Shown: positions 1 through 11,407 of the stretch, in pieces
How positions within the stretch are numbered: position 1 is the stretch's first letter
How the letters are laid out: every line of letters starts with the position of its first letter
Source: a virus
Lineage: Duplodnaviria; Heunggongvirae; Uroviricota; Caudoviricetes
Virus record (IMG/VR): IMGVR_UViG_2617271049_000014
Length of the DNA stretch: 17,875 nucleotides
Direction: 5' to 3' (one strand)
The notes under the pieces: model-generated
Databases searched by the model: none
Seen by the model: only the letters and a program-made list of their open reading frames with translations
Told to the model about the DNA's origin: nothing
Program-made: the position numbers and the translations under genes

Positions 1-1236
1 CTACGATAACCGCGCATTCAACATGGCTACCTGTTCGTCGTTCATGTCATCAATCCACATACCGTAAATTTCATACACCATCTGCGCAGTTTCATGCCCC
101 ATCTGGCTGGCTATAAACGCCGGGTTCGCTCCTGCCGTCAACAGCCAGCAGGCAAAAGTATGCCGCGTATGGTACGGATTACGGCGGCGAATACCAGCAC
201 GTTTTACTGCTGCATTCCATCTCGCACCCAAACTGCTTACCGAGTAATAAGGTTTCTGTTTTCCGTTACACACTCTGGGCATGAAAACAAAATGCAGTTT
301 TTGCTTTTCGGTTCTGCCGTACTCCCGATGATAAAAAGTGATTTCGCTTTTGCGATGATGCCCGGTCAGTTTGTATTGCTCCTTCAGTGCTTCAAGAGCA
401 GGCTGCAGTAGTGTTACCGTCCGGATCCCCGCATTTGTTTTTGGGGGACCGAACATATCCAGTATCGTCAGGTTTCTTCTGACATTCACAACTCCCTTCT
501 CGAAATCCACATCCTCCCACGCCAGAGCAGCCAGTTCCCCGTGACGAAGCCCGGAGTATACGGCAAATTTCCACAAGTTCTGGCTCTGTCCTTTTTCACT
601 TTCCATTAATGCATTGAATTCTGTTTTAGATAACGGGTCAGGCTTTATTCTGTTTCTCTGTAATTTCTTTACTCCTTCAAATGGTTTGGTTGATATAAAT
701 CCCGACTGATACGCAAAACGTAACAACGAACAGAGCAGGGCGATATAGTTATCAACTGTGCGCACGGTTCTTCCTTTTTTGTTGGATCTTGGATTATCCA
801 GGTAAAGCGTTTCTCCATGCAGCAGTTCATTCCGGTAGTTTAAGATATCGCTATAACGAATATGCGATATCGGAGTACTCTCACAAATTATTATCCTGAG
901 TGTTTTTAATTGTGATTTCGTTTTCTTCATTGTGTTTGTTGTTAACTCTGTTTCTTTAATTTTTGTCCAGATATCACAAAGCTCCCCAAACGTTTTTATG
1001 ACCCTCGTTGTCACCATTTTTGCCCCAGTGCTGGACTAGGGAAAACGTCTTAAATACTCAAACTCACCGGAATTGATTTCATGAACTATCAACGCTCTTA
1101 AATTCCCGGCTTTTTTAATGTTACTGTTAGTAACCTCCCAGCCTTTCAATGTTTCCCGACATCGTTTTCCTCGAAACATGAACCAGATGCGAATGTATTT
1201 ACCTCGAATCTCGACACCTGTTGGTAATTTAGACAT
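1..1236 (-). pseudogene. intR: Tyrosine-recombinase prophage integrase (Rac IntR-type) interrupted by an in-frame TAG at 1036-1038; fragments 1..1017 (338 aa, core and catalytic domains) and 1039..1236 (66 aa, N-terminal arm-binding domain)
   Basis: ORFs 1..1017 and 1036..1236 are in the same minus-strand frame, separated only by codon 1036-1038 (plus cta = TAG on the coding strand). The read-through sequence is ...RRFP*SSTGAKMVTT.... The catalytic region shows tyrosine-recombinase motifs (HTRHTFACWLLTAGANPAFIASQMGHE). The combined span is 412 codons, matching the 411 aa I recall for K-12 IntR. ATG at 1234-1236. Confidence 0.8.
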
Positions 1237-1237
1237 A

Positions 1238-1453
1238 TCATGAGTCTTTGATAAACTGATTTATCTTTGGATAGTTATACCAGATAATCCCTCGCTTACT
1301 GTCTGGCTTCCCTAAAGGAGATACTCGTTTGAAGTGGAAGCCTTCCACCCAACAGTTCTGGCGGTATGCTTCAATTTGTCTGGCCCCCAGACCAGTGCGA
1401 AGCATCAGGCCGTATTCAACCATCCACTCTTCATTAAAGATTACTTGTGCCAT
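1238..1453 (-). CDS. ydaQ: Excisionase-like small protein (YdaQ/XisR-like), 71 aa from the ATG at 1451-1453
   Basis: Small ORF immediately upstream of int on the same strand. The track ORF begins at a TTG (1475-1477); the first ATG gives [10 protein letters not shown]..., 71 aa. Stop at 1238-1240 lies 1 nt from the int start. Confidence 0.6.
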
Positions 1454-1552
1454 CGCATCACCTCTGGCAGGCGCCAATGTTAGACTTAAATTGACGCCCG
1501 ATGTTGATTATTAATAATCAGCTATGAAGTTTTAATTTGAATACAATGCAAT

Positions 1553-1753
1553 TCACGAGGACTGAAGTTTCTCGCAATTAAAATTTATCAGTTTTACTTT
1601 CTGCTCTCTGGAAACGCCTGCTTCTTTTTTACCTGAGAGCATTTTTTCGCATTCTGATTTCGTTAGTTTAGATTTTGAATATCTTGTCCAGTTAGTAGGA
1701 GTGCCACCTTCCTTTTCAATAGTGGCGGTAATTTTATACATGAACACCTCCAT
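1553..1753 (-). CDS. ydaC: YdaC-like small prophage protein (DUF1187-like); start ambiguous (ATG 1751-1753 gives 66 aa, ATG 1811-1813 gives 86 aa)
   Basis: ORF 1553..1813 on the minus strand. The internal ATG at 1751-1753 (MEVFMYKITATIEK...) is preceded by GGAA and clears the ralR reading frame better; the upstream ATG has no RBS. Confidence 0.5.
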   Translation of the reverse strand: MEVFMYKITATIEKEGGTPTNWTRYSKSKLTKSECEKMLSGKKEAGVSREQKVKLINFNCEKLQSS

Positions 1754-1928
1754 TATTATTTCCAGTGGTTCGTTTATTTCATCGTTCGAGTGCTTCTTTT
1801 TCACTTCCACCATAACCGGTTCGGGATTCGCATCCGTTACACTTCGCTCGGTAATATCCTGAAATGGCTTTCACCGTTACTGATGGACAACCACAAAATG
1901 GACATGGTTTAACATTGTCATATCTCAT
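1734..1928 (-). pseudogene. ralR: Restriction-alleviation protein RalR/Lar with a premature TGA at 1779-1781 (codon 50 from the MRYD start); predicted truncated product 49 aa instead of 64 aa
   Basis: Minus-strand translation from ATG 1926-1928 gives MRYDNVKPCPFCGCPSVTVKAISGYYRAKCNGCESRTGYGGSEKEALER, then TGA, then in-frame NKRTTGNNNGGVHV and TAA at 1734-1736. The read-through is exactly 64 codons and matches my recollection of Lar (CPFCGC...CNGC zinc-ribbon-like motif). Below the 60 aa ORF-track cutoff; found by manual translation. Confidence 0.6.
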
Positions 1929-1983
1929 AATTTTTCTCATAAAAATATTTCAAGTTGGCGGTGCATTACACCGCCAGGCTGAA

Positions 1984-2793
1984 TTATTCCTCTGAATTAT
2001 CGATTACACTGTATTCCCCGGTTAATACAGAGGAATCTGCAGGATCGATTGTCAGTGGTTCCTTTTCATCCATTGATACTGCACGCTGGATCTCAATTGA
2101 TACGGGCAGATATTTGAACAGGCGACGAATAGCCGTTTTCTTTGCCATTTCTTCCCAGTGAGTTACCCACGGCCCGTTATTACCAGCTTTACTCTGGCTG
2201 CGCACCAGCTCAATCTGTTTGCGCGTCATAACTTCAAACTGAGTACCTCCGTCTTTCAGTCTTGCGACAGCATAGACGTGGGTAACAGGGGCATCTTCGT
2301 TTTCTCCTGGGCGGTGTATTAACTTTTCATCAAGGCCAAATTCGAAATTAAACTCGTCACCTTCACGGACAACACGGGCTGACAGGCTGGCGATTTGACC
2401 TGAACGGCGAGCCAGATCAATCATGCCGCGATAGCCAATGATTAGCTGAACGTTTTTTTTACCGCTCTTTTCGTTTTTATTACCAAAAGGCAGTAAATAT
2501 GCATGACCGAGGGCGCTACCGGGCTCAAGTCCGAGCTGTGAACACTGTACGATTGCACTGACAAAACTCATAGTGTCACAGTTTCCTAACGCCGGAACTT
2601 TACGAATTTCTGTGGTGGCGATACGGATCATACGTTCAGCCGTCATATGGCGTGGAAGAGCTGCTGCCAGTTGCTCTTTCATTGATGGCTGGTTAATAAA
2701 ACTAATCACGTCGTTATTTTTAATTGCTGCTGGTGCACGGTTTCCCTGAGTTTTTTGCAGATCGGCTTTTGCGATTGGTGGTTGCTTAGTCAT
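1984..2793 (-). CDS. recT: RecT recombinase (single-strand annealing protein), 269 aa
   Basis: Translation from ATG 2791-2793 ([28 protein letters not shown]...) matches RecT as I recall it. RBS AAGGAA upstream. The start overlaps the recE stop (2786-2788) by 8 nt. Confidence 0.9.
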
Positions 2794-5386
2794 TTGCATA
2801 TTCCTTAGCCCAGCGGGGCAGTGATAACGTCTTAATAGCTGGCCATTCATCGGTATTGAGGCAGTCAGCCAGGGTTCGCAGATTGCGGTGATATTCCAGC
2901 TGACCTGCCAGTTTTGCTTCTTCGCCCATCATGAAAATTTCAACCGGATAACGTCCGCATTCAATAGTTGTGCTGGCAACCAGAAAAACGAAAGTTGGCT
3001 GCACTCCAAACTGTGCTTCATAACCGTCACTGTAGAATGCATCCTGAACGTGATAGCGGTAGTCGTAATAAGCGGTTTTGAATCGTTGAATATCCGCCGT
3101 AGTTTTCACGTCCATGATCCAGTGAAATTCAGGGATAATTTTGTCCGGACGGCACCGACACAAAATTGCTGTTTCAGGATCTTCCCAGTAAATTGATGAT
3201 TCAGCGTGTCCGGCGCTTTCAACAAGCCATTGCCCCAGCGGCAAAGCCATAACGCTCTGATACATGAGTTCAATTTTCCGGCCTTCTTCGGCAGTGATAA
3301 CCGTTTTTCCTGTGCTTGCGCATTCCCTCAGAAACGCTTTCTCTTCTTCTTTTCCGGAGTTTGTCCGGCGGTTAAATTCAGGTGCTACGATAAAGCGGTT
3401 ACTGAATTCTTCCGGCTCAAGTACCCGGCAGTGGAAAGCGGTTCCTAAATCGAGCGTTTTTGTCTTTGTGGTGTCCACGGGGGCATTTTTACGCCACAAA
3501 TACAGTGCCGGAGTATCAGCAATGTCATCGAGCTGAGACTTACTGACACCGGGACCCGCGTGGTAATTCTCATTCGAAATTCCGTAATAAATACCTGGCT
3601 CTATGTCTTCTACGATTACGGGATCTGCGACTTCGCCAGTTTCATCACTGCAATCGCGATGCGGATCGCTGCCAGCATTCTCATTGTGCGGATGTTCAGC
3701 GCCTTCCATTTCCTCCGGATCATTTTCCTTAGCTTCAACCTGACTCTCTTCATCGAATGTTTCCTGGTATGTTGCGTCGCCCATCACCGCACCACAGTCA
3801 GGGCAGTTATCCCCGCCAGTCTGGCCGCAGGCATTGCAGGCTATTTCCGGTTCCTGTTGCACTACTGGCTCAGGTTGATTCATATCCGGGCTGGTTTTTT
3901 CCGTTTCTGGCTGGTTCTGGTACACACAATCGCGAGTCTGGATCCCCTTTACCCATTTCGGATCGTTCGGGTCGCTAATTCCGTCAACAAATTCACCACG
4001 TGATGCAGCAAGCAATTTATCGGCATCGACAGGATTTTTTGATGGAATGTTTTTCCGGGCTTCATGGAGTTCTGCCCGCAGTTCCTGATATTTCGCATCA
4101 ACAGAATTTACCTGTGACTGAGCATCCAGCGGCTGCGTGTCCTGATGATGTTCAGTTGCGTCCGGTTCCATTGTTTCAGCCTCTCCCTGTTCAACTGCCG
4201 TTGTTCCAGATGGTTGCGGTTTTTCTTCATCATCCTGTTTTCCTTCTTCTGTTACTCGCTGCGGCATCGGGGCAGAGGAGCGACCGCAGGCAATATCCAC
4301 GATTTCCGGATCAGGGTTGGCATGATCGGTTTCAGTCAGTACTTTGTTCAGATATTCAGTGACGTGCGCGGGGATGACCTCGATCCCAATTGGTGCTTCT
4401 TTTACGGACGCAACCACGATGGCGCGGGAATAATCCAGCCCGCCAGGCATGGTGATGAATTTGTCGCGGAAAACAGAAAAGGGCGGTTTATTTTCAGCGA
4501 TAATTTCCTCAATGCGTTTAGCGTGTGCCGGATGAAGGTTATAGATGTCCAGATCCATTGAACGGGCCAGTACGCCAGTGGCTACGTCCCGCGCCAGTGA
4601 CGTCAGATCGTGTACGAAACCTTCGCCGCGATCGGTGAGGTTTCCGCCGCCAGCATTAGCACCGGAAGCCGTGCGAGTGATGTGTGAAACACGATTACCC
4701 TTCATCCACTCTTTTGTCAGCAGTCCTCGATCGGTGTAGTCAGCGTTCAGGTATGCTTCGAAAAAAGCAGTTATCAGTCCCAGGTTTGAATTACCAGGAT
4801 TAGGGAAAACTTTGTCAGTGTCACGAACCAGTTTGTGGAGTTCGCGAATTTCCAGCGGGTCGAGCAGGCTGGTTTTGTGGGAAACAGCCAGGGCAGTAAC
4901 AGCCGGTAGTTCTTCAGCCCGAGCAATGTGTAATGCCTGGAGTCCGTCGCGTGAAACGTGCGTTACCGGTTTTTCGCTGCCGTGTTGAGCAAGCCAACGA
5001 ATGGGCAGTTCCTGGCCAGAAATTGGGAGTAGCATATTCTCCTCAATCTCAGTCATGTCTTCGCCGTTGACGTTGGTATTGCCTTGATAGTGAGCGTTGT
5101 CTGGTGCTGCTCCCGGTTTTAGTTCCCATGTCATGGAGTCTTTGCTGAGTTGATAGCGTTCACTCCAGGTAAAATCGATCTCACCTTCAGCGGGCAGGTC
5201 ATTAACGACAGGAAAATTCGTGGCAACAGCTTTAAAATAGCTGCTCAGTTTTTTACCTGACTTAACGATCAGGTAGTCCAGAGTGGCACAGGTCGATTCA
5301 AAATCGTTGCTTGCCCACAGGACGACGTCAGGTTCACCGGATGATTTTTTCGCTTTCCGTAACAGGAAGAGTGGTTTTGTGCTCAT
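2786..5386 (-). CDS. recE: Exodeoxyribonuclease VIII (RecE), 866 aa
   Basis: 866 aa ORF from ATG 5384-5386. Acidic, low-complexity N-terminal half and C-terminal nuclease domain; length and sequence consistent with Rac RecE. Coupled to recT. Confidence 0.9.
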
Positions 5387-5457
5387 TGTTTTTTAACCTC
5401 AACTCAGATTAAAATTCGTTTTGTTCAGTGAATGATCTTGCCGGATACACACTGTTC

Positions 5458-5482
5458 ATAGCCTGCGCCATACGCAGGCTAT
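5458..5482. other. Perfect inverted repeat (10 bp stem ATAGCCTGCG / CGCAGGCTAT, 5 nt loop) in the racC-recE intergenic region
   Basis: Read directly: atagcctgcg-ccata-cgcaggctat at 5458-5482, about 5 nt downstream of the racC stop (5488-5490) and about 75 nt upstream of the recE start. The minus-strand RNA has no U-tract after the stem. Confidence 0.5.
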
Positions 5483-5487
5483 TTCTT

Positions 5488-5763
5488 TCAGATTTCACCT
5501 TTTAATTTCATTGCAATTAGAGTTGCCAGAAATTCGGCTTTTTTTTCTGCGGGCAGATTCTTTCCGATATGCACCAGGCACATTTTTTTGACACCTTCAT
5601 CAAGTGTTTTTACGTTGCCTGATGGACCATCGATATCAACCACAGTGAATGGGGTTTCTTTATTTTCTGTTTTAATTACGTAGCCAATGCGCTTTCCTTC
5701 CAGATTCACCTCGTGAACAATGTCATCGGTAGTTACAACAGTGGCTTCATAATTGGTAATCAT
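5488..5763 (-). CDS. racC: RacC, small prophage protein, 91 aa
   Basis: ATG at 5761-5763 preceded by a strong RBS (AAGGAGAAAAAC-ATG). Product MITNYEATVVTTDDIVHEVNLEGKRIGYVIK.... The track ORF extends to an upstream ATG at 5811 that lacks an RBS. Confidence 0.8.
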   Translation of the reverse strand: MITNYEATVVTTDDIVHEVNLEGKRIGYVIKTENKETPFTVVDIDGPSGNVKTLDEGVKKMCLVHIGKNLPAEKKAEFLATLIAMKLKGEI

Positions 5764-5837
5764 GTTTTTCTCCTTAATTAAGGTTGAGCGAATACCTGCC
5801 ATTTCTGGCATAAATTCAGTTTCGAATAGTCAATTAA

Positions 5838-6008
5838 TTAAAGTTCATGTGCCATCTGGTCTTTTTCGGCACAAGCTTCACTGCAATATTTTCTCGGTTC
5901 GTCTTTTGATAAAATCCCGTGCATGAAGTGAAGCATTCTTTCAATAGCTTTGCTTTCTTCAACGTCTTTTTTGCAAAGGTGGTAAGCACATTTTATTTTC
6001 TTAGTCAT
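5838..6008 (-). CDS. ydaE: YdaE-like small Cys-rich (zinc-binding type) protein, 56 aa
   Basis: Manual translation from ATG 6006-6008: [56 protein letters not shown], stop TAA at 5838-5840. The start overlaps the kilR stop (ATGA). Below the ORF-track size cutoff. Confidence 0.7.
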   Translation of the reverse strand: MTKKIKCAYHLCKKDVEESKAIERMLHFMHGILSKDEPRKYCSEACAEKDQMAHEL

Positions 6009-6229
6009 CACCATGACTCCGCCTTTACAGGTAAACCATCACGACCGAGGAAGACTTTAATCATGCGGTCAGTAATGCATGTTTTTGTGGTCAGGTTACG
6101 AATATATAGTTTTCGCTTTTTAATATTGTTTGCCGAGGCAATATATGTCCGGCCTTCATGAAGAACATAATCGCCAGGAGTCACACACTGACGTGGTATT
6201 TCATCAGTTCCGAAGTGATGTGCAATCAT
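6008..6229 (-). CDS. kilR: KilR, FtsZ-targeting cell-division inhibitor of Rac, 73 aa
   Basis: ATG 6227-6229 with GGAG RBS. Product [46 protein letters not shown]... matches KilR as I recall it. The track ORF starts 4 codons further upstream. Confidence 0.8.
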
Positions 6230-6670
6230 AATTATCTCCATTTTTACAAATGAACTTTGTTGATGCGGTGCCTGGTGCCTCCAGGTGACTGCAACCAGTT
6301 AACAATTACAGTCGGCTTTCCCACCCAAACCAATAAGGACTAACATGACTTTTAACTGTGCCACGTGCGCTTAGCCGCATTCACCGCATCACAAAATTCA
6401 CTTTAAAAAGGGCGGACATCAGCCGAACTTCAAGAAAAAAACTGATGCCGCCAGGACTACACACAGCAATGTCGTTATTTACAACCGGAGGCGCACTCCC
6501 ACCATTTAAATTTAACAGACAAGACCGACTCTTTATGGATATCGGAAATGCGCCTTCGTGTTGTGCCCGGTTTTATTTCACCACCTCCGGGCTTCGGTGG
6601 TCTCGGCTATACCCCTACAGCGAGAGCTTGTGTTAACATTTCAATACCCTTACAGTTGAGAGTTATTGAT

Positions 6671-7159
6671 ATGTTGGATGTATTTACTCCATTGTTGAAA
6701 CTTTTTGCTAACGAGCCACTCGAAATACTTATGTATACGATTATCATTTTTGGTCTCACTCTCTGGCTGATACCGAAAGAGTTTACTGTCGCATTCAATG
6801 CTTATACTGAAATACCTTGGCTCTTTCAGATTATCGTTTTTGCCTTTTCTTTCGTGGTCGCCATTTCCTTCTCAAGATTGCGAGCACATATTCAAAAGCA
6901 TTATTCATTACTACCAGAGCAACGAGTATTGCTTCGTTTATCTGAGAAAGAAATCGCTGTATTTAAAGATTTCCTTAAAACAGGAAATCTTATTATCACT
7001 TCTCCTTGCCGTAACCCGGTTATGAAAAAATTAGAACGGAAGGGCATCATTCAACATCAGAGTGATAGCGCAAACTGTTCTTATTATCTCGTCACCGAAA
7101 AATACTCCCATTTTATGAAGTTATTCTGGAACAGCAGGAGTAGACGTTTTAATCGTTAG
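6671..7159 (+). CDS. sieB: Superinfection-exclusion protein SieB (membrane protein), 162 aa
   Basis: ATG 6671 (MLDVFTPLLKLFANEPLEILMYTIIIFGLTLWLIPKEF...) with two hydrophobic segments and SieB-like length. The track ORF start at 6548 is an unsupported upstream extension. Confidence 0.8.
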   Translation: MLDVFTPLLKLFANEPLEILMYTIIIFGLTLWLIPKEFTVAFNAYTEIPWLFQIIVFAFSFVVAISFSRLRAHIQKHYSLLPEQRVLLRLSEKEIAVFKDFLKTGNLIITSPCRNPVMKKLERKGIIQHQSDSANCSYYLVTEKYSHFMKLFWNSRSRRFNR

Positions 7160-7311
7160 CTTACTGTGTGCTTCTCCAACCATCGGCGCGCACCAGTTTC
7201 GGTTTTAAATGTTTTGCTTTTGGTATACGTCATGGCAGTGAACGTTCCATCCTGGTTGGGGAACACGCCGCACACCAGGGATTCGTTGTTGCCGAGGTCG
7301 ATTTTTTGCAT
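7156..7311 (-). CDS. ydaF: YdaF-like small prophage protein, 51 aa
   Basis: Manual translation from ATG 7309-7311: MQKIDLGNNESLVCGVFPNQDGTFTAMTYTKSKTFKTETGARRWLEKHTVS, stop TAA at 7156-7158. Convergent 4-nt overlap with the sieB stop. The 51 aa length matches what I recall for K-12 ydaF. Below the ORF-track cutoff. Confidence 0.55.
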   Translation of the reverse strand: MQKIDLGNNESLVCGVFPNQDGTFTAMTYTKSKTFKTETGARRWLEKHTVS

Positions 7312-7321
7312 TTTGCGAATC

Positions 7322-7456
7322 TCACATCTTGTTGCTGTGTATAGCGACTTCTGCCTGCCAGAGATCCCAGTCGTTGCTGCGTAAAGCCTGCACAGCCTGG
7401 TTGTAAGTGATACCGCAACAATCCATCAAATACTGAACTACTTCGTAATGCACCAT
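7322..7456 (-). CDS. ydaG: YdaG-like small prophage protein, 44 aa
   Basis: ATG 7454-7456 preceded by GGGGAGAGATAAG. Product MVHYEVVQYLMDCCGITYNQAVQALRSNDWDLWQAEVAIHSNKM. The track ORF begins at an upstream GTG. First gene downstream of the putative leftward promoter. Confidence 0.6.
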   Translation of the reverse strand: MVHYEVVQYLMDCCGITYNQAVQALRSNDWDLWQAEVAIHSNKM

Positions 7457-7624
7457 CTTATCTCTCCCCTTAACGCCGGGTGGCGGAACTGAAACCTGCT
7501 GCACTGCAAAATCTGAACCCTGCCGTCATGTTCATACGCCTCGGGCTGGCTACTTAACCCCTGACCACTGCCTGGTAACTCGAAGTATTGCCCTGCGTTC
7601 TGTGGGGCGGGGTGGGTTGGTAGG

Positions 7625-7680
7625 TATATAATGTACTTTGTGTTCATTGATGTAAAGTACTTTAAGTACATTTTGTGTGT
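7625..7680 (-). promoter_or_regulatory. Putative leftward early promoter (pL-like) with overlapping operator repeats (oL-like)
   Basis: On the minus strand: -35 TTTACA (plus 7651-7656), 17-nt spacer, -10 CATTAT (plus 7628-7633). ATGTACTT at 7631-7638, the 10-bp palindrome AAAGTACTTT at 7655-7664 and AAGTACAT at 7665-7672 overlap the -35 and -10 elements. Confidence 0.45.
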
Positions 7681-7746
7681 AAAAAAATGAGATGGGATAA
7701 AGTGAAGCACAAACCCGGAGGGGGACGCTACCGGATTTATGCTGGT

Positions 7747-8166
7747 TTAAGAGGCTTTTTGTTTTTTCTTTCGTGCTAGCTCTTCGTAAATTGCATTGTA
7801 CTTCTGTTTTTTCTCCTCAAGAGTTTTTAAAAGTTCATCTGTCTCACTGTCAGGGAGCTCGTCCAGAAGGTCAATGATGATTTTTTGTCTTGGATTTAAC
7901 TCCTGATAGAAACGTACCTGTCCACTTTCTTCTGTATCCTCTCCCAAAAGATAGGTTGGTGTTGTTCCAATGAGTGTTGCTAATTCCCTTAATTTCTCTC
8001 GGCGAGGAATTGTTTCGCCATTAAACCATTTGCTAACCGCTTTTGGTGTTAATTTCATTCGACGGGCAATTTCTGCCTGCCTTCCATGTTGTTCATAACC
8101 AGCGTTTTCACAGGCTAGCGCAAGCCTACTGGCGAACTCTTTACGCGCTTTATCTTCATGAACCAT
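7747..8166 (-). CDS. racR: Prophage repressor (RacR-like), N-terminal HTH, no LexA-like peptidase domain, 139 aa
   Basis: ATG 8164-8166. HTH-like segment QAEIARRMKLTPKAVSKWFNG. Divergent from the Cro-like gene across an ~80 bp operator region. The C-terminus is charged and coiled-coil-like (ELARKKKQKAS). Confidence 0.7.
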   Translation of the reverse strand: MVHEDKARKEFASRLALACENAGYEQHGRQAEIARRMKLTPKAVSKWFNGETIPRREKLRELATLIGTTPTYLLGEDTEESGQVRFYQELNPRQKIIIDLLDELPDSETDELLKTLEEKKQKYNAIYEELARKKKQKAS

Positions 8167-8245
8167 AAGTTCAATGATATTCGCTCTTGAATGTACTGTC
8201 AGTTCTGTTATAGCATGTACTCAAAGTTCACATTGTGAGGGTGAT
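8167..8245. promoter_or_regulatory. Divergent promoter/operator region (oR-like) between the repressor and the Cro-like gene
   Basis: Rightward -35 TTGAAT (8187-8192) and -10 TATAGC (8209-8214), spacer 16. ATGTACT occurs at 8191-8197 and 8215-8221, overlapping those elements; the same heptamer recurs in the oL-like region. Confidence 0.5.
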
Positions 8246-8500
8246 ATGAACCAGAAAACACTTGAAGATGTAATCAAAACTGTTCGCGTTTCTGTTGTGG
8301 CCGACGTTTGTGGTGTCAGCCAAAGAGCAATCTACAAATGGATGGATAACGGAAAATTGCCTCGCACAGAATATACCGGCGAAACAAATTACGCTGAAAA
8401 AATCGCTCATGCATCAAACGGATTATTTTCTGCTGATGTAATTTTAACTATTGGCAGAAATAAAACTACTACGAAAAAGCTGATGGGAGTTGATTCATGA
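8246..8500 (+). CDS. ydaS: Cro/XRE-like small HTH protein (YdaS-like), 84 aa from the ATG at 8246
   Basis: ATG 8246 preceded by GAGGGTGAT. HTH-like VSQRAIYKWMDNGKLP. The track start at 8174 lies only 8 nt from the racR start, leaving no room for a promoter. Stop overlaps the ydaT start (ATGA). Confidence 0.65.
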   Translation: MNQKTLEDVIKTVRVSVVADVCGVSQRAIYKWMDNGKLPRTEYTGETNYAEKIAHASNGLFSADVILTIGRNKTTTKKLMGVDS

Positions 8501-8919
8501 AAATCAAGCATGAGCACATCGAGTCAGTGTTGTTAGCCCTGGCAGCCGAAAAAGGGCAGGCATGGGTAGCCAATGCCATTACTGAAGAATATCTGCGCCA
8601 GGGGGGCGGCGAATTGCCCCTGGTACCAGGCAAGGACTGGAATAATCAGCAGAATATCTATCACCGTTGGTTGAAAGGTGAAACGAAAACGCAAAGAGAA
8701 AAAATTCAGAAGCTGATCCCAGCAATTCTGGCAATCCTTCCGCGCGAGCTGCGTCACCGACTCTGCATCTTCGATACCCTGGAACGCCGTGCATTACTGG
8801 CGGCGCAGGAAGCGTTAAGTACGGCAATTGATGCGCATGATGATGCAGTCCAAGCCGTTTACCGGAAAGCGCATTTCAGCGGCGGCGGGTCTTCCGACGA
8901 TTCTGTCATTGTTCATTAA
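8497..8919 (+). CDS. ydaT: YdaT-like prophage protein, 140 aa
   Basis: ATG 8497 coupled to ydaS. Product MKIKHEHIESVLLALAAEKGQAWVANAITEEYLRQGG...; length matches the 140 aa I recall for Rac YdaT. Confidence 0.75.
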   Translation: MKIKHEHIESVLLALAAEKGQAWVANAITEEYLRQGGGELPLVPGKDWNNQQNIYHRWLKGETKTQREKIQKLIPAILAILPRELRHRLCIFDTLERRALLAAQEALSTAIDAHDDAVQAVYRKAHFSGGGSSDDSVIVH

Positions 8920-8931
8920 GCAAAAGTTTCC

Positions 8932-9684
8932 ATGCTGTTTGTGCTTATTCTAAGCCACCGGGCAGCATCATACGGGGCAATTATGGCCGCATTACCATAC
9001 ATGCAACTGTACATAGCTGATTACCTGGCTGACACCATGCATTTGTCAGCAGAGGAGCATGGTGCGTATTTGTTGCTGATGTTCAATTACTGGCAAACAG
9101 GAAAGCCAATACCTAAAAACAGGCTGGCAAAAATTGCCCGTCTGACTAACGAGCGATGGGCTGATGTTGAACCATCCTTGCAGGAGTTTTTTTGCGATAA
9201 CGGCGAGGAATGGGTGCATCTTCGGATTGAGGAAGATCTGGCATCAGTCAGGGAAAAATTAACCAAAAAATCAGCCGCAGGAAAAGCATCTGTTCAGGCC
9301 AGAAGAAGCAGAAAGGAAGCAGATGTTCAAACAAAACAAGAGAGAAATTTAACAGGTGTTCAAACAGATGTTGAAGTGGTGTTTGAACATGATGTCAACA
9401 CAAAGGCAACTAATAAAGATACAGATAAAGATCTAAAAACAGATCCCCCCCTAAATCCCCCCCGGGGGAATCGAGGTGTCAAAAAGTTTGACCCTCTGGA
9501 TATTGCTTTGCCGAACTGGATTTCTGTCTCGCTTTGGCGTGAGTGGGTTGAATTTCGCCAGGCATTGCGAAAACCGATTCGAACGGAGCAGGGCGCTAAC
9601 GGGGCGATACGGGAGCTGGAAAAATTCCGCCAGCAGGGTTTTTCACCTGAGCAGGTGATTCGACACAGCATCGCCAATGAATAA
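8932..9684 (+). CDS. ydaU: YdaU-like replication-region protein (DUF1376-like N-terminus); start ambiguous (ATG 8932 or ATG 8983, MAALPYMQLY...)
   Basis: N-terminal motif YIADYLADTMHLSAEEHGAYLLLMFNYW. The ORF ends at 9684, shorter than the 285 aa I recall for K-12. Contains two C7 homopolymer tracts at 9445-9463. Confidence 0.65.
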   Translation: MLFVLILSHRAASYGAIMAALPYMQLYIADYLADTMHLSAEEHGAYLLLMFNYWQTGKPIPKNRLAKIARLTNERWADVEPSLQEFFCDNGEEWVHLRIEEDLASVREKLTKKSAAGKASVQARRSRKEADVQTKQERNLTGVQTDVEVVFEHDVNTKATNKDTDKDLKTDPPLNPPRGNRGVKKFDPLDIALPNWISVSLWREWVEFRQALRKPIRTEQGANGAIRELEKFRQQGFSPEQVIRHSIANE

Positions 9685-9812
9685 GAGCCTCAACGTGATG
9701 CTATGCCGACCTGCTCCCTGAGAATTCACACAGAAGGCTGCTAGCAATGTCTGCAGATCGCTCAAAGCGGACTAAAATGTTGGCTTGTTTCTGACTTAGA
9801 GCATTTAAGGAA

Positions 9813-10037
9813 GTGCTGGTGGTGACTGGTTGTTGTGTTCCATTTCTACAGAATAAAATCACAGAAACTATACCCAATAGTTGTATTGAATCACTGACGA
9901 GACAGCCTCATATTTATCAGGACTGGTGTGCGTCTAATACAGGGGGTTGTCGTGCTGGTTCTCAAATGTGCGCTGGCTATTGCGGCTGTAATGGCAATTT
10001 ATTGTCTTGCTGTTGTTCTTATGGAGCGGCTTTCTGA
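9813..10037 (+). CDS. Hypothetical Cys-rich small protein (12 Cys in about 72 aa); speculative
   Basis: ORF with GTG starts at 9813 and 9819; AGGAAG at 9806-9811 gives a 7-nt spacer to GTG 9819. Product ...CCVPFLQNK...CIESL...WCASNTGGCRAGSQMCAGYCGCNGNLLSCCCSYGAAF. No recognised family. Confidence 0.2.
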   Translation: MLVVTGCCVPFLQNKITETIPNSCIESLTRQPHIYQDWCASNTGGCRAGSQMCAGYCGCNGNLLSCCCSYGAAF

Positions 10038-10196
10038 TTGATTACATACTGGCTAGAAAAAAGGTGTTACCTTGGTTTATCTTTGTCCGGCAAGGTGCGC
10101 TCATTAATCTTAAGTAAATTTATTGCTCAAGTATTCAGATTACTTCTTATGGTTGAAGTCTCCTGTCAATGTAGAACCAATATATTTACAAAAATG

Positions 10197-10226
10197 AGAC
10201 CCGTCGGGGATAGCCCTGCCGGGTCT
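10197..10226 (-). terminator. Rho-independent terminator for the minus-strand DUF1971-like gene
   Basis: Stem AGACCCG (10197-10203) pairs with CGGGTCT (10220-10226), with an inner GGG/CCC extension. On the minus strand the hairpin is followed by CAUUUUUGUAAAUAU. It lies about 30 nt downstream of the stop at 10256-10258. Confidence 0.5.
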
Positions 10227-10255
10227 GACTGTTAAAGCATTTTTAATATGATCAT

Positions 10256-10594
10256 CTATTTTTTGGTGCTATAGACTTTTTCGCCCGAAAAGTCTGGAGC
10301 GACCCAAAAGTTAATATTAAACTGAGCATCATCGCTTAGTTCAACACGGTGCCAGTATTGTGGTGGGCTTGTTGCAAAAGCGCCAGCATTAATGACTACT
10401 TTTATCTCCGGTTCAGTAGCATTCTCATCAGTAAAACCATAATATGTTACAGTGCCTTCCATTACGCACAACTGCCCAAAAATACCTGCTGCTGTATTAT
10501 GATGTGTTAATAACGCTGAAGGTACGTTCTCTTTTGTGAAGAACGGAGTTGAGCGTTTGATTACCCAATCTTTAGGAATTCTCTTGTGTGTCAT
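10256..10594 (-). CDS. DUF1971 (YeaR / TehB N-terminal domain-like) small protein, 112 aa
   Basis: ATG 10592-10594 preceded by a strong RBS (GGAGGAGGTGGTT-ATG). Motifs RSTPFF...HHNTAAGIFGQLCVMEGTVTYYGF...EP...INAGAFATSPPQYWHRVE...DDAQFNINFWVAP fit the DUF1971 pattern as I recall it. Opposite orientation to the flanking phage genes. Confidence 0.5.
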   Translation of the reverse strand: MTHKRIPKDWVIKRSTPFFTKENVPSALLTHHNTAAGIFGQLCVMEGTVTYYGFTDENATEPEIKVVINAGAFATSPPQYWHRVELSDDAQFNINFWVAPDFSGEKVYSTKK

Positions 10595-11407
10595 AACCAC
10601 CTCCTCCAAAACATGCATTAAAAATGCATCTTTTGGAGGGTTATGTCAAGCTGTTATGAAACACATAATTGATATGTTGATTAGAGGAGAAGATAGAATA
10701 AATATGGTTGTTTTTCGTATAACTATTTGTTTTACTTTTAGTTTATGCATTCTGTGTGTTAGGAATAAGTTATTAAAGTTTAATCAAAAAATCTCGATGT
10801 AGTCCACATAGATTACTGTTACTGAACCTTATTGTGTGTATTAGTTGTGTTCTGAAATTTCAGCTTAATTATTTATGATGTATTTTTTAACGATAAATAT
10901 TTTCCCAGGATACCTTTACTGTGTATATAAATAAATTATATACGCATAAATAATGTAAAGGCGTCCTTTTAGATATATCTTATCAAATGTTAATGACTTG
11001 AGTGGGAAATATGATTCCAGCAACTTATCATGTGGCTACTTTATAAAAATAATGCCCATATAAAACAACAAGCGAAAAGGATTACGGATAAAAAAGGAGC
11101 GAGATGTGCGAACTTGTTATTTTCCATGTTTAACCACCTTAAATAATTGATGATGACGGGATGATTGCATCTGTAATGCTTTTATTGAAATGTTATGATA
11201 AAAAAGAACTTTTGCATAACATTAAAATGTAATTTATCTAATCGTTTTTAATAATAAGTGTCGTATTTCTATCCTTGTACCAGCTATTTGATATGTAGTG
11301 TTTGTTCATGCTATGTGGGGCTTTACACCATAGCCAGTTTATTTATACTTTATTCGTCAGCCTGAACAACTGGCATCTGCTGCGCTGCGCCATCGAGAGA
11401 TTGAGAA

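Follow-up and report, generated by a model that had tools for sequence, protein, structure and literature searches.

An apparently recent amber mutation divides the integrase gene intR of a Rac prophage and probably locks the prophage in the Escherichia coli chromosome

The intR locus and its prophage setting

The stretch of DNA analysed in this study, hereafter the window, has a length of 17,875 nucleotides. Translation of its minus strand from position 1236 to position 1 gave a frame of 411 codons with a single internal stop, a TAG at codon 67 (1038..1036), and the natural stop, also a TAG, was found after the 411 codons at 3..1. The original prediction, which was made from the letters of the window, had described a Rac integrase frame that is continuous across 1..1236 except for a TAG at 1036-1038 of the minus strand. 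Both the translation and the list of open reading frames agreed with this description, and the interval that had been marked (1018..1056) brackets the stop. In the list the gene appears as two ORFs, of 66 aa (1036..1236) and 338 aa (1..1017), which lie in one frame with the TAG and six sense codons between them. The second ORF starts at the downstream ATG (1015-1017) to which attention had already been drawn.

The remaining 410 residues of the frame are identical to those of the intact 411-aa protein WP_000040839.1 of strains O55:H7 RM12579 and NCTC10444, and the locus was therefore taken as one interrupted gene and not as two ORFs adjoining by chance. Since the TAG at codon 67 leaves no unbroken 411-aa polypeptide with both the arm-binding and the catalytic part, intR of the window was classed as a pseudogene and not as a functional member of the IntR proteins, which are heterobivalent tyrosine recombinases.

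Judged by its sequence and its neighbours, the gene is a Rac-type intR, that is, the integrase gene of the defective (cryptic) prophage Rac. The assignment to Rac, which had been proposed beforehand, is in agreement with the 96% nucleotide identity to K-12 b1345, with the adjoining xisR and with the presence of ttcA in the source contig. A megablast search with positions 1..1500 against 5426 complete E. coli genomes found the stretch in 2919 of them, and the annotation among the matches listed was intR (tyrosine-type integrase) and xisR (excisionase). In O55:H7 RM12579, NCTC10444 and K-12 MG1655, intR is an uninterrupted 411-aa CDS flanked by xisR and ttcA, and it marks the left end of Rac. 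The same arrangement was found here: 1 nt separates the xisR stop from the intR start, and the Rac attachment gene ttcA is located 51 nt downstream of intR in HG977190.1, the identical contig, likewise as in K-12. The gene thus occupies the orthologous position: it follows xisR as the closing gene of the pair, at the end of the prophage that is inserted in ttcA, with the attachment sites falling outside the window. K-12 IntR (b1345, NP_415861.1) and WP_000040839.1 share with the window gene the locus, the length of 1236 nt and the domain order.

The rest of the window contains the Rac early region, with ralR, recT, recE, racC, ydaE, kilR, sieB, ydaF, repressor/cro-like genes, ydaT and ydaU, as well as the late and lysis region and trkG. 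The features of the locus are collected in Table 1. Read from an upstream ATG, sieB has an open frame of 203 aa at 6548..7159, while RefSeq gives 162 aa (6671..7159); gene callers differ in this start between assemblies.

Table 1. Features of the intR locus, the deletion in the same prophage copy, and intR lesions in other assemblies (window positions, unless an intR codon is given)
Feature	Position	Strand	Basis or remark
intR, Rac-type tyrosine integrase gene, pseudogene	1..1236	minus	Translation; 411 codons, interrupted at codon 67
338-codon ORF from Met74, SAM-like core-binding and catalytic	1..1017	minus	Pfam PF14659, PF00589; deposited as CDU35953.1
Silent TTC>TTT at Phe83, second private change	988..988	minus	Alignment to O55:H7, difference lists
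Possible restart site	1015..1026	minus	GGGG (1026..1023), 5-nt A-rich spacer, ATG (1017..1015)
Amber TAG in place of CAG (Gln67)	1036..1038	minus	Alignment to O55:H7, difference lists
66-codon N-terminal ORF, arm-type DNA-binding domain	1039..1236	minus	PF12167 Arm-DNA-bind_2, E=4.9e-26; deposited as CDU35954.1
xisR (ydaQ) excisionase, intact	1238..1453	minus	Without internal stop; Pfam PF06806; annotated xisR in relatives
Junction of 4.3-kb deletion	9682..9683		BLAST against NCTC10444 (missing stretch L002 11684..15982)
Lesion in L005	intR codon ~35		1-nt deletion
Lesion in L006	intR codon 53		GAA>TAA (ochre)
Lesion in L007 and L009	intR codon 66/67		CCCC>CCC
Lesion in L008	intR codon 71		GGGG>GGG
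Gap in L003			Run of N (assembly gap)

Ancestral codon, rarity and reliability of the amber allele

Alignment of the window gene with those of K-12, O55:H7 and NCTC10444 showed CAG (Gln) at codon 67 in all three, and the same codon was read in the other loci, so that the wild-type codon is the one that had been expected. The window gene and the O55:H7 (or NCTC10444) gene are 2 nt apart in 1236 nt, the differences being Q67amber and the silent change at F83; with the commonest closely related allele the comparison gave two C>T changes only. The amber codon corresponds to C>T on the coding strand (G>A at plus-strand position 1038), and the Phe83 change, 50 nt downstream of it, is also C>T on the coding strand.

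When window 1..1236 was compared with K-12 b1345 (L021 2001..3236), the nucleotide identity was 96.2%. Only 5 of the 47 nucleotide differences change an amino acid, the amber stop apart, and on this ratio IntR is clearly under purifying selection across E. coli, even though the prophage is called cryptic. This makes the amber stop a departure from a maintained gene. Downstream of the stop there is one silent change and nothing else is damaged; this lack of further accumulated damage suggests that the nonsense mutation is recent.

A 151-nt query centred on the stop (960..1110) matched 1832 complete E. coli genomes, none of them with fewer than two mismatches (best identity 98.7%), and neither Q67amber nor the silent F83 change was found among these 1832 genomes. 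In a look-up by exact product in about 15 billion proteins, the TAG allele was found only in contig HG977190.1 (assembly GCA_000731355.1) of E. coli D6-113.11, in which the two products are recorded as CDU35953.1 (338 aa, "Putative integrase for prophage CP-933R") and CDU35954.1 (66 aa). It had also been considered beforehand that intact homologues might naturally begin at the downstream ATG. This was not the case in the complete genomes inspected, where the homologues are single 411-aa proteins and not a small arm ORF followed by a separate catalytic ORF.

Two groups of apparent further carriers were rejected. The 66-aa product also matched a dozen short contigs (L012-L020), which have wild-type sequence and break off no more than 2 nt from the amber position, in ...TTTTCCC, ...CCCC or ...CCCCA; because the look-up is made by exact product sequence, these matches reflect a selection effect and not a hot spot of mutation. 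Nor are the other assemblies in which a 338-aa product is called relatives of the TAG allele; each of them has a different lesion or a gap (Table 1). These lesions in the arm-coding part represent either recurrent inactivation or read errors in Logan assemblies, and the homopolymer changes in some of them may be read errors; at most, they indicate that intR is occasionally disrupted, and not always in the same manner.

By BLAST, positions 1..11017 of the window are 100% identical to HG977190.1, and on this basis the allele belongs to D6-113.11 or a near-identical strain, with the base call resting on one public assembly. E. coli D6-113.11 is a clinical bovine mastitis isolate that was sequenced to >200x by Illumina HiSeq with paired-end and mate-pair libraries, Velvet being used for the assembly (PMC4392153). 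At this depth an error in the consensus base at the amber codon is unlikely.

It would follow from such an error that the strain really carries an intact intR with CAG, and we regard this as very unlikely. The occurrence of the TAG allele in a single deposited assembly, the two private C>T changes within 50 nt and the homopolymer-length "frameshifts" nearby in L007, L008 and L009, which resemble read errors, are compatible with it. However, the amber change is a substitution and not a homopolymer indel, and substitution errors in the consensus are rare in HiSeq data of that depth. Moreover, the deposited contig matches the window throughout 11,017 bases, and in the whole 17.9 kb only about 10 positions (ordinary transitions and one indel) separate the window from NCTC10444, so that the assembly does not look noisy. 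The closeness of the two private C>T changes was rejected as a signal in itself, since with about 9 substitutions in 17.9 kb it would arise by chance roughly 1 time in 5 (a rough estimate).

Domain boundary and predicted fate of the recombinase

Pfam analysis separated the two ORFs in the way that had been predicted, with an arm domain (PF12167) on the 66-aa product and the core-binding (PF14659, weak) and catalytic (PF00589) domains on the 338-aa product. The PF12167 match spans profile positions 1-62 of 65. On the 338-aa ORF the catalytic domain was matched with E=1.2e-23, and the match to the SAM-like core-binding domain was below the Pfam cut-off. The box motifs GLRHGE, KTNAGIR, HTRHT and GHE...EIY could be recognised in the translation, and with them the catalytic R, K, H-x-x-R, H and Y, as read by eye and not from a structure-based alignment. 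A tyrosine-recombinase catalytic domain and an N-terminal arm-type domain are thus both encoded, on separate ORF segments. In intact IntR the domain limits are residues 5-69 (PF12167), 82-139 (SAM-like) and 205-391 (catalytic), which on the Pfam profiles puts codon 67 right where the arm domain ends, in the linker that leads to the core-binding domain.

Translation of the window gene would stop in this linker, after the arm-binding domain, and the products would be at most a free 66-aa arm-binding peptide and, possibly, a 338-aa arm-less fragment with the core-binding and catalytic parts, formed by restart at Met74. An integrase of the lambda type has to bridge arm and core sites with one polypeptide in order to build the recombination complex. 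Since binding to both kinds of site is needed in one polypeptide, the split IntR should fail at excision and integration, and the prophage would be "grounded" in the chromosome. Most likely IntR is dead and this Rac copy no longer excises by its own enzyme. The reading as a whole, a recent CAG>TAG change in intR that splits the protein and locks the prophage in the chromosome, is held with high confidence.

Among proteins of solved structure, the one closest to IntR in sequence was Tn1549 Int, and no match to lambda Int was obtained at E<0.001. The arm domain of IntR is PF12167, whereas that of lambda Int belongs to a different Pfam family. IntR is only distantly related to lambda Int, and results obtained with split lambda Int are best used as an architectural analogy and not as a test on IntR. 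With this proviso, a study of lambda Int (PMC9791396) describes the same break, after the arm-binding and before the core-binding domain, between an NTD (1-64) and a CTD (65-356); the pieces are thus of 64 and 292 residues, as compared with 66 and 338 in IntR. According to that study, the C-terminal portion alone gave no recombination, mixing of the N- and C-terminal polypeptides did not restore it, and a binary lambda Int worked only with an activating mutation and an added peptide. The lambda fragments are laboratory constructs, whereas the split in IntR is a natural mutation that leaves residues 68-73 absent from both products.

Loss of the recombinase is a described route to grounded prophages, a mutation in its gene being recognised as one of the events by which prophages are fixed in the chromosome (PMC6379469). 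In K-12 the Rac prophage excises at low frequency, aided by XisR, and excision is undetectable for prophages that have no active integrase, which is the explanation given for the grounded (cryptic) prophages Qin and CP4-44 (PMC4632033). With codon 67 as TAG instead of CAG, the Rac copy of the window should not excise, unlike that of K-12, and would resemble Qin and CP4-44 in having lost its recombinase. It differs from these grounded prophages in that the lesion is a single, apparently very recent, point mutation in one lineage, the gene being intact in the matching complete genomes inspected.

The ATG of Met74 lies 18 nt past the amber codon. The calculated duplex of the possible restart site with the 16S 3' end was -4.7 kcal/mol, as compared with -0.9 kcal/mol at the start of intR itself. 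Pairing as good as that of this site is reached by about 15-20% of random 20-mers in the window. Restart at Met74 is therefore plausible, with the weak Shine-Dalgarno-like GGGG being suggestive only, and some putative arm-less protein may be made. From this it could be argued that the split gene still works, either as a two-piece recombinase or through an arm-less fragment with a useful activity of its own, given that both ORFs are otherwise undamaged with their catalytic motifs intact, that the GGGG is suitably spaced from the ATG, and that an engineered lambda Int can act as a binary enzyme (PMC9791396). We consider this highly improbable. The unmodified lambda pieces did not recombine when mixed, as cited above, the Shine-Dalgarno match is no better than that of many random sites, and the split arrangement occurs in 0 of the 1832 complete genomes, so that nothing indicates selection for it. 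The more specific proposal, that the natural break has given rise to a two-piece integrase that works, or to an IntR core that lacks the arm and has its own function, by termination and restart at Met74, is more doubtful still. If it were true, the activity of the arm-less fragment could be cleavage or recombination at core sites, or interference with incoming Rac-like phages. The loss of IntR function thus remains the preferred reading of the split.

Deliberate decoding of the amber codon, through programmed read-through or a resident suppressor tRNA as a means of conditional integrase expression, is scarcely credible. Although the wild-type residue is Gln, the one that a supE-type suppressor inserts, the TAG is conserved in no relative (in none of the homologues of the 1832 complete genomes), TAG is an ordinary terminator at the ends of intR itself and sieB in the window, which argues against reassignment, and the stop is in the context UAG-U. 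E. coli terminates comparatively well at stops that are followed by a U. In the sequence nothing points to recoding or programmed decoding of this TAG.

The amber suppressor supE (glnV44) inserts Gln, and because the ancestral codon is CAG the suggested rescue by such a suppressor is logically sound: the exact wild-type residue would be restored. In the flank downstream (L004 11015..11071), intR and ttcA share one frame, in which nothing but two TAG codons at a distance of 10 codons keeps them apart. In a host with amber suppression, IntR could be lengthened and, in rare cases, joined to TtcA.

A second lesion and the significance of the allele

The same prophage copy carries a second lesion, a 4.3-kb deletion relative to NCTC10444. 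It cuts ydaU to 250 aa with loss of the 3' end and removes ydaV (encoding a DnaC/IstB-like ATPase), DUF1627 and DUF977 genes and two hypothetical genes, the loss being counted here as ydaV and four more genes. The junction shows a 2-nt microhomology (TA), and it was spanned in 0 of the 5426 complete E. coli genomes. Besides its integrase, the Rac copy in the D6-113.11 lineage has thus lost part of its replication module, which fits ongoing decay.

Prophage decay of this kind is ordinary and well described, and here the lesion is confined to one lineage and affects a prophage that was already defective. It has little significance beyond D6-113.11 and opens no new question. Should excision indeed be abolished, Rac would be locked in the chromosome of D6-113.11, recET, ralR, kilR, sieB and trkG would no longer be lost by excision, and the strain could not restore an uninterrupted ttcA in this way; in K-12, Rac excision with restoration of ttcA affects biofilm and antibiotic phenotypes (PMC4632033). 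With one nonsense mutation and one deletion, both private to the lineage, the locus is a clean and dated illustration of how prophage domestication begins. As a natural counterpart of the NTD/CTD dissection of lambda Int, the amber allele might also serve as a convenient test allele.

A 1-nt deletion as compared with NCTC10444 was observed at position 10608 of the window, just upstream of a DUF1971/TehB-like gene (10256..10594, minus strand).
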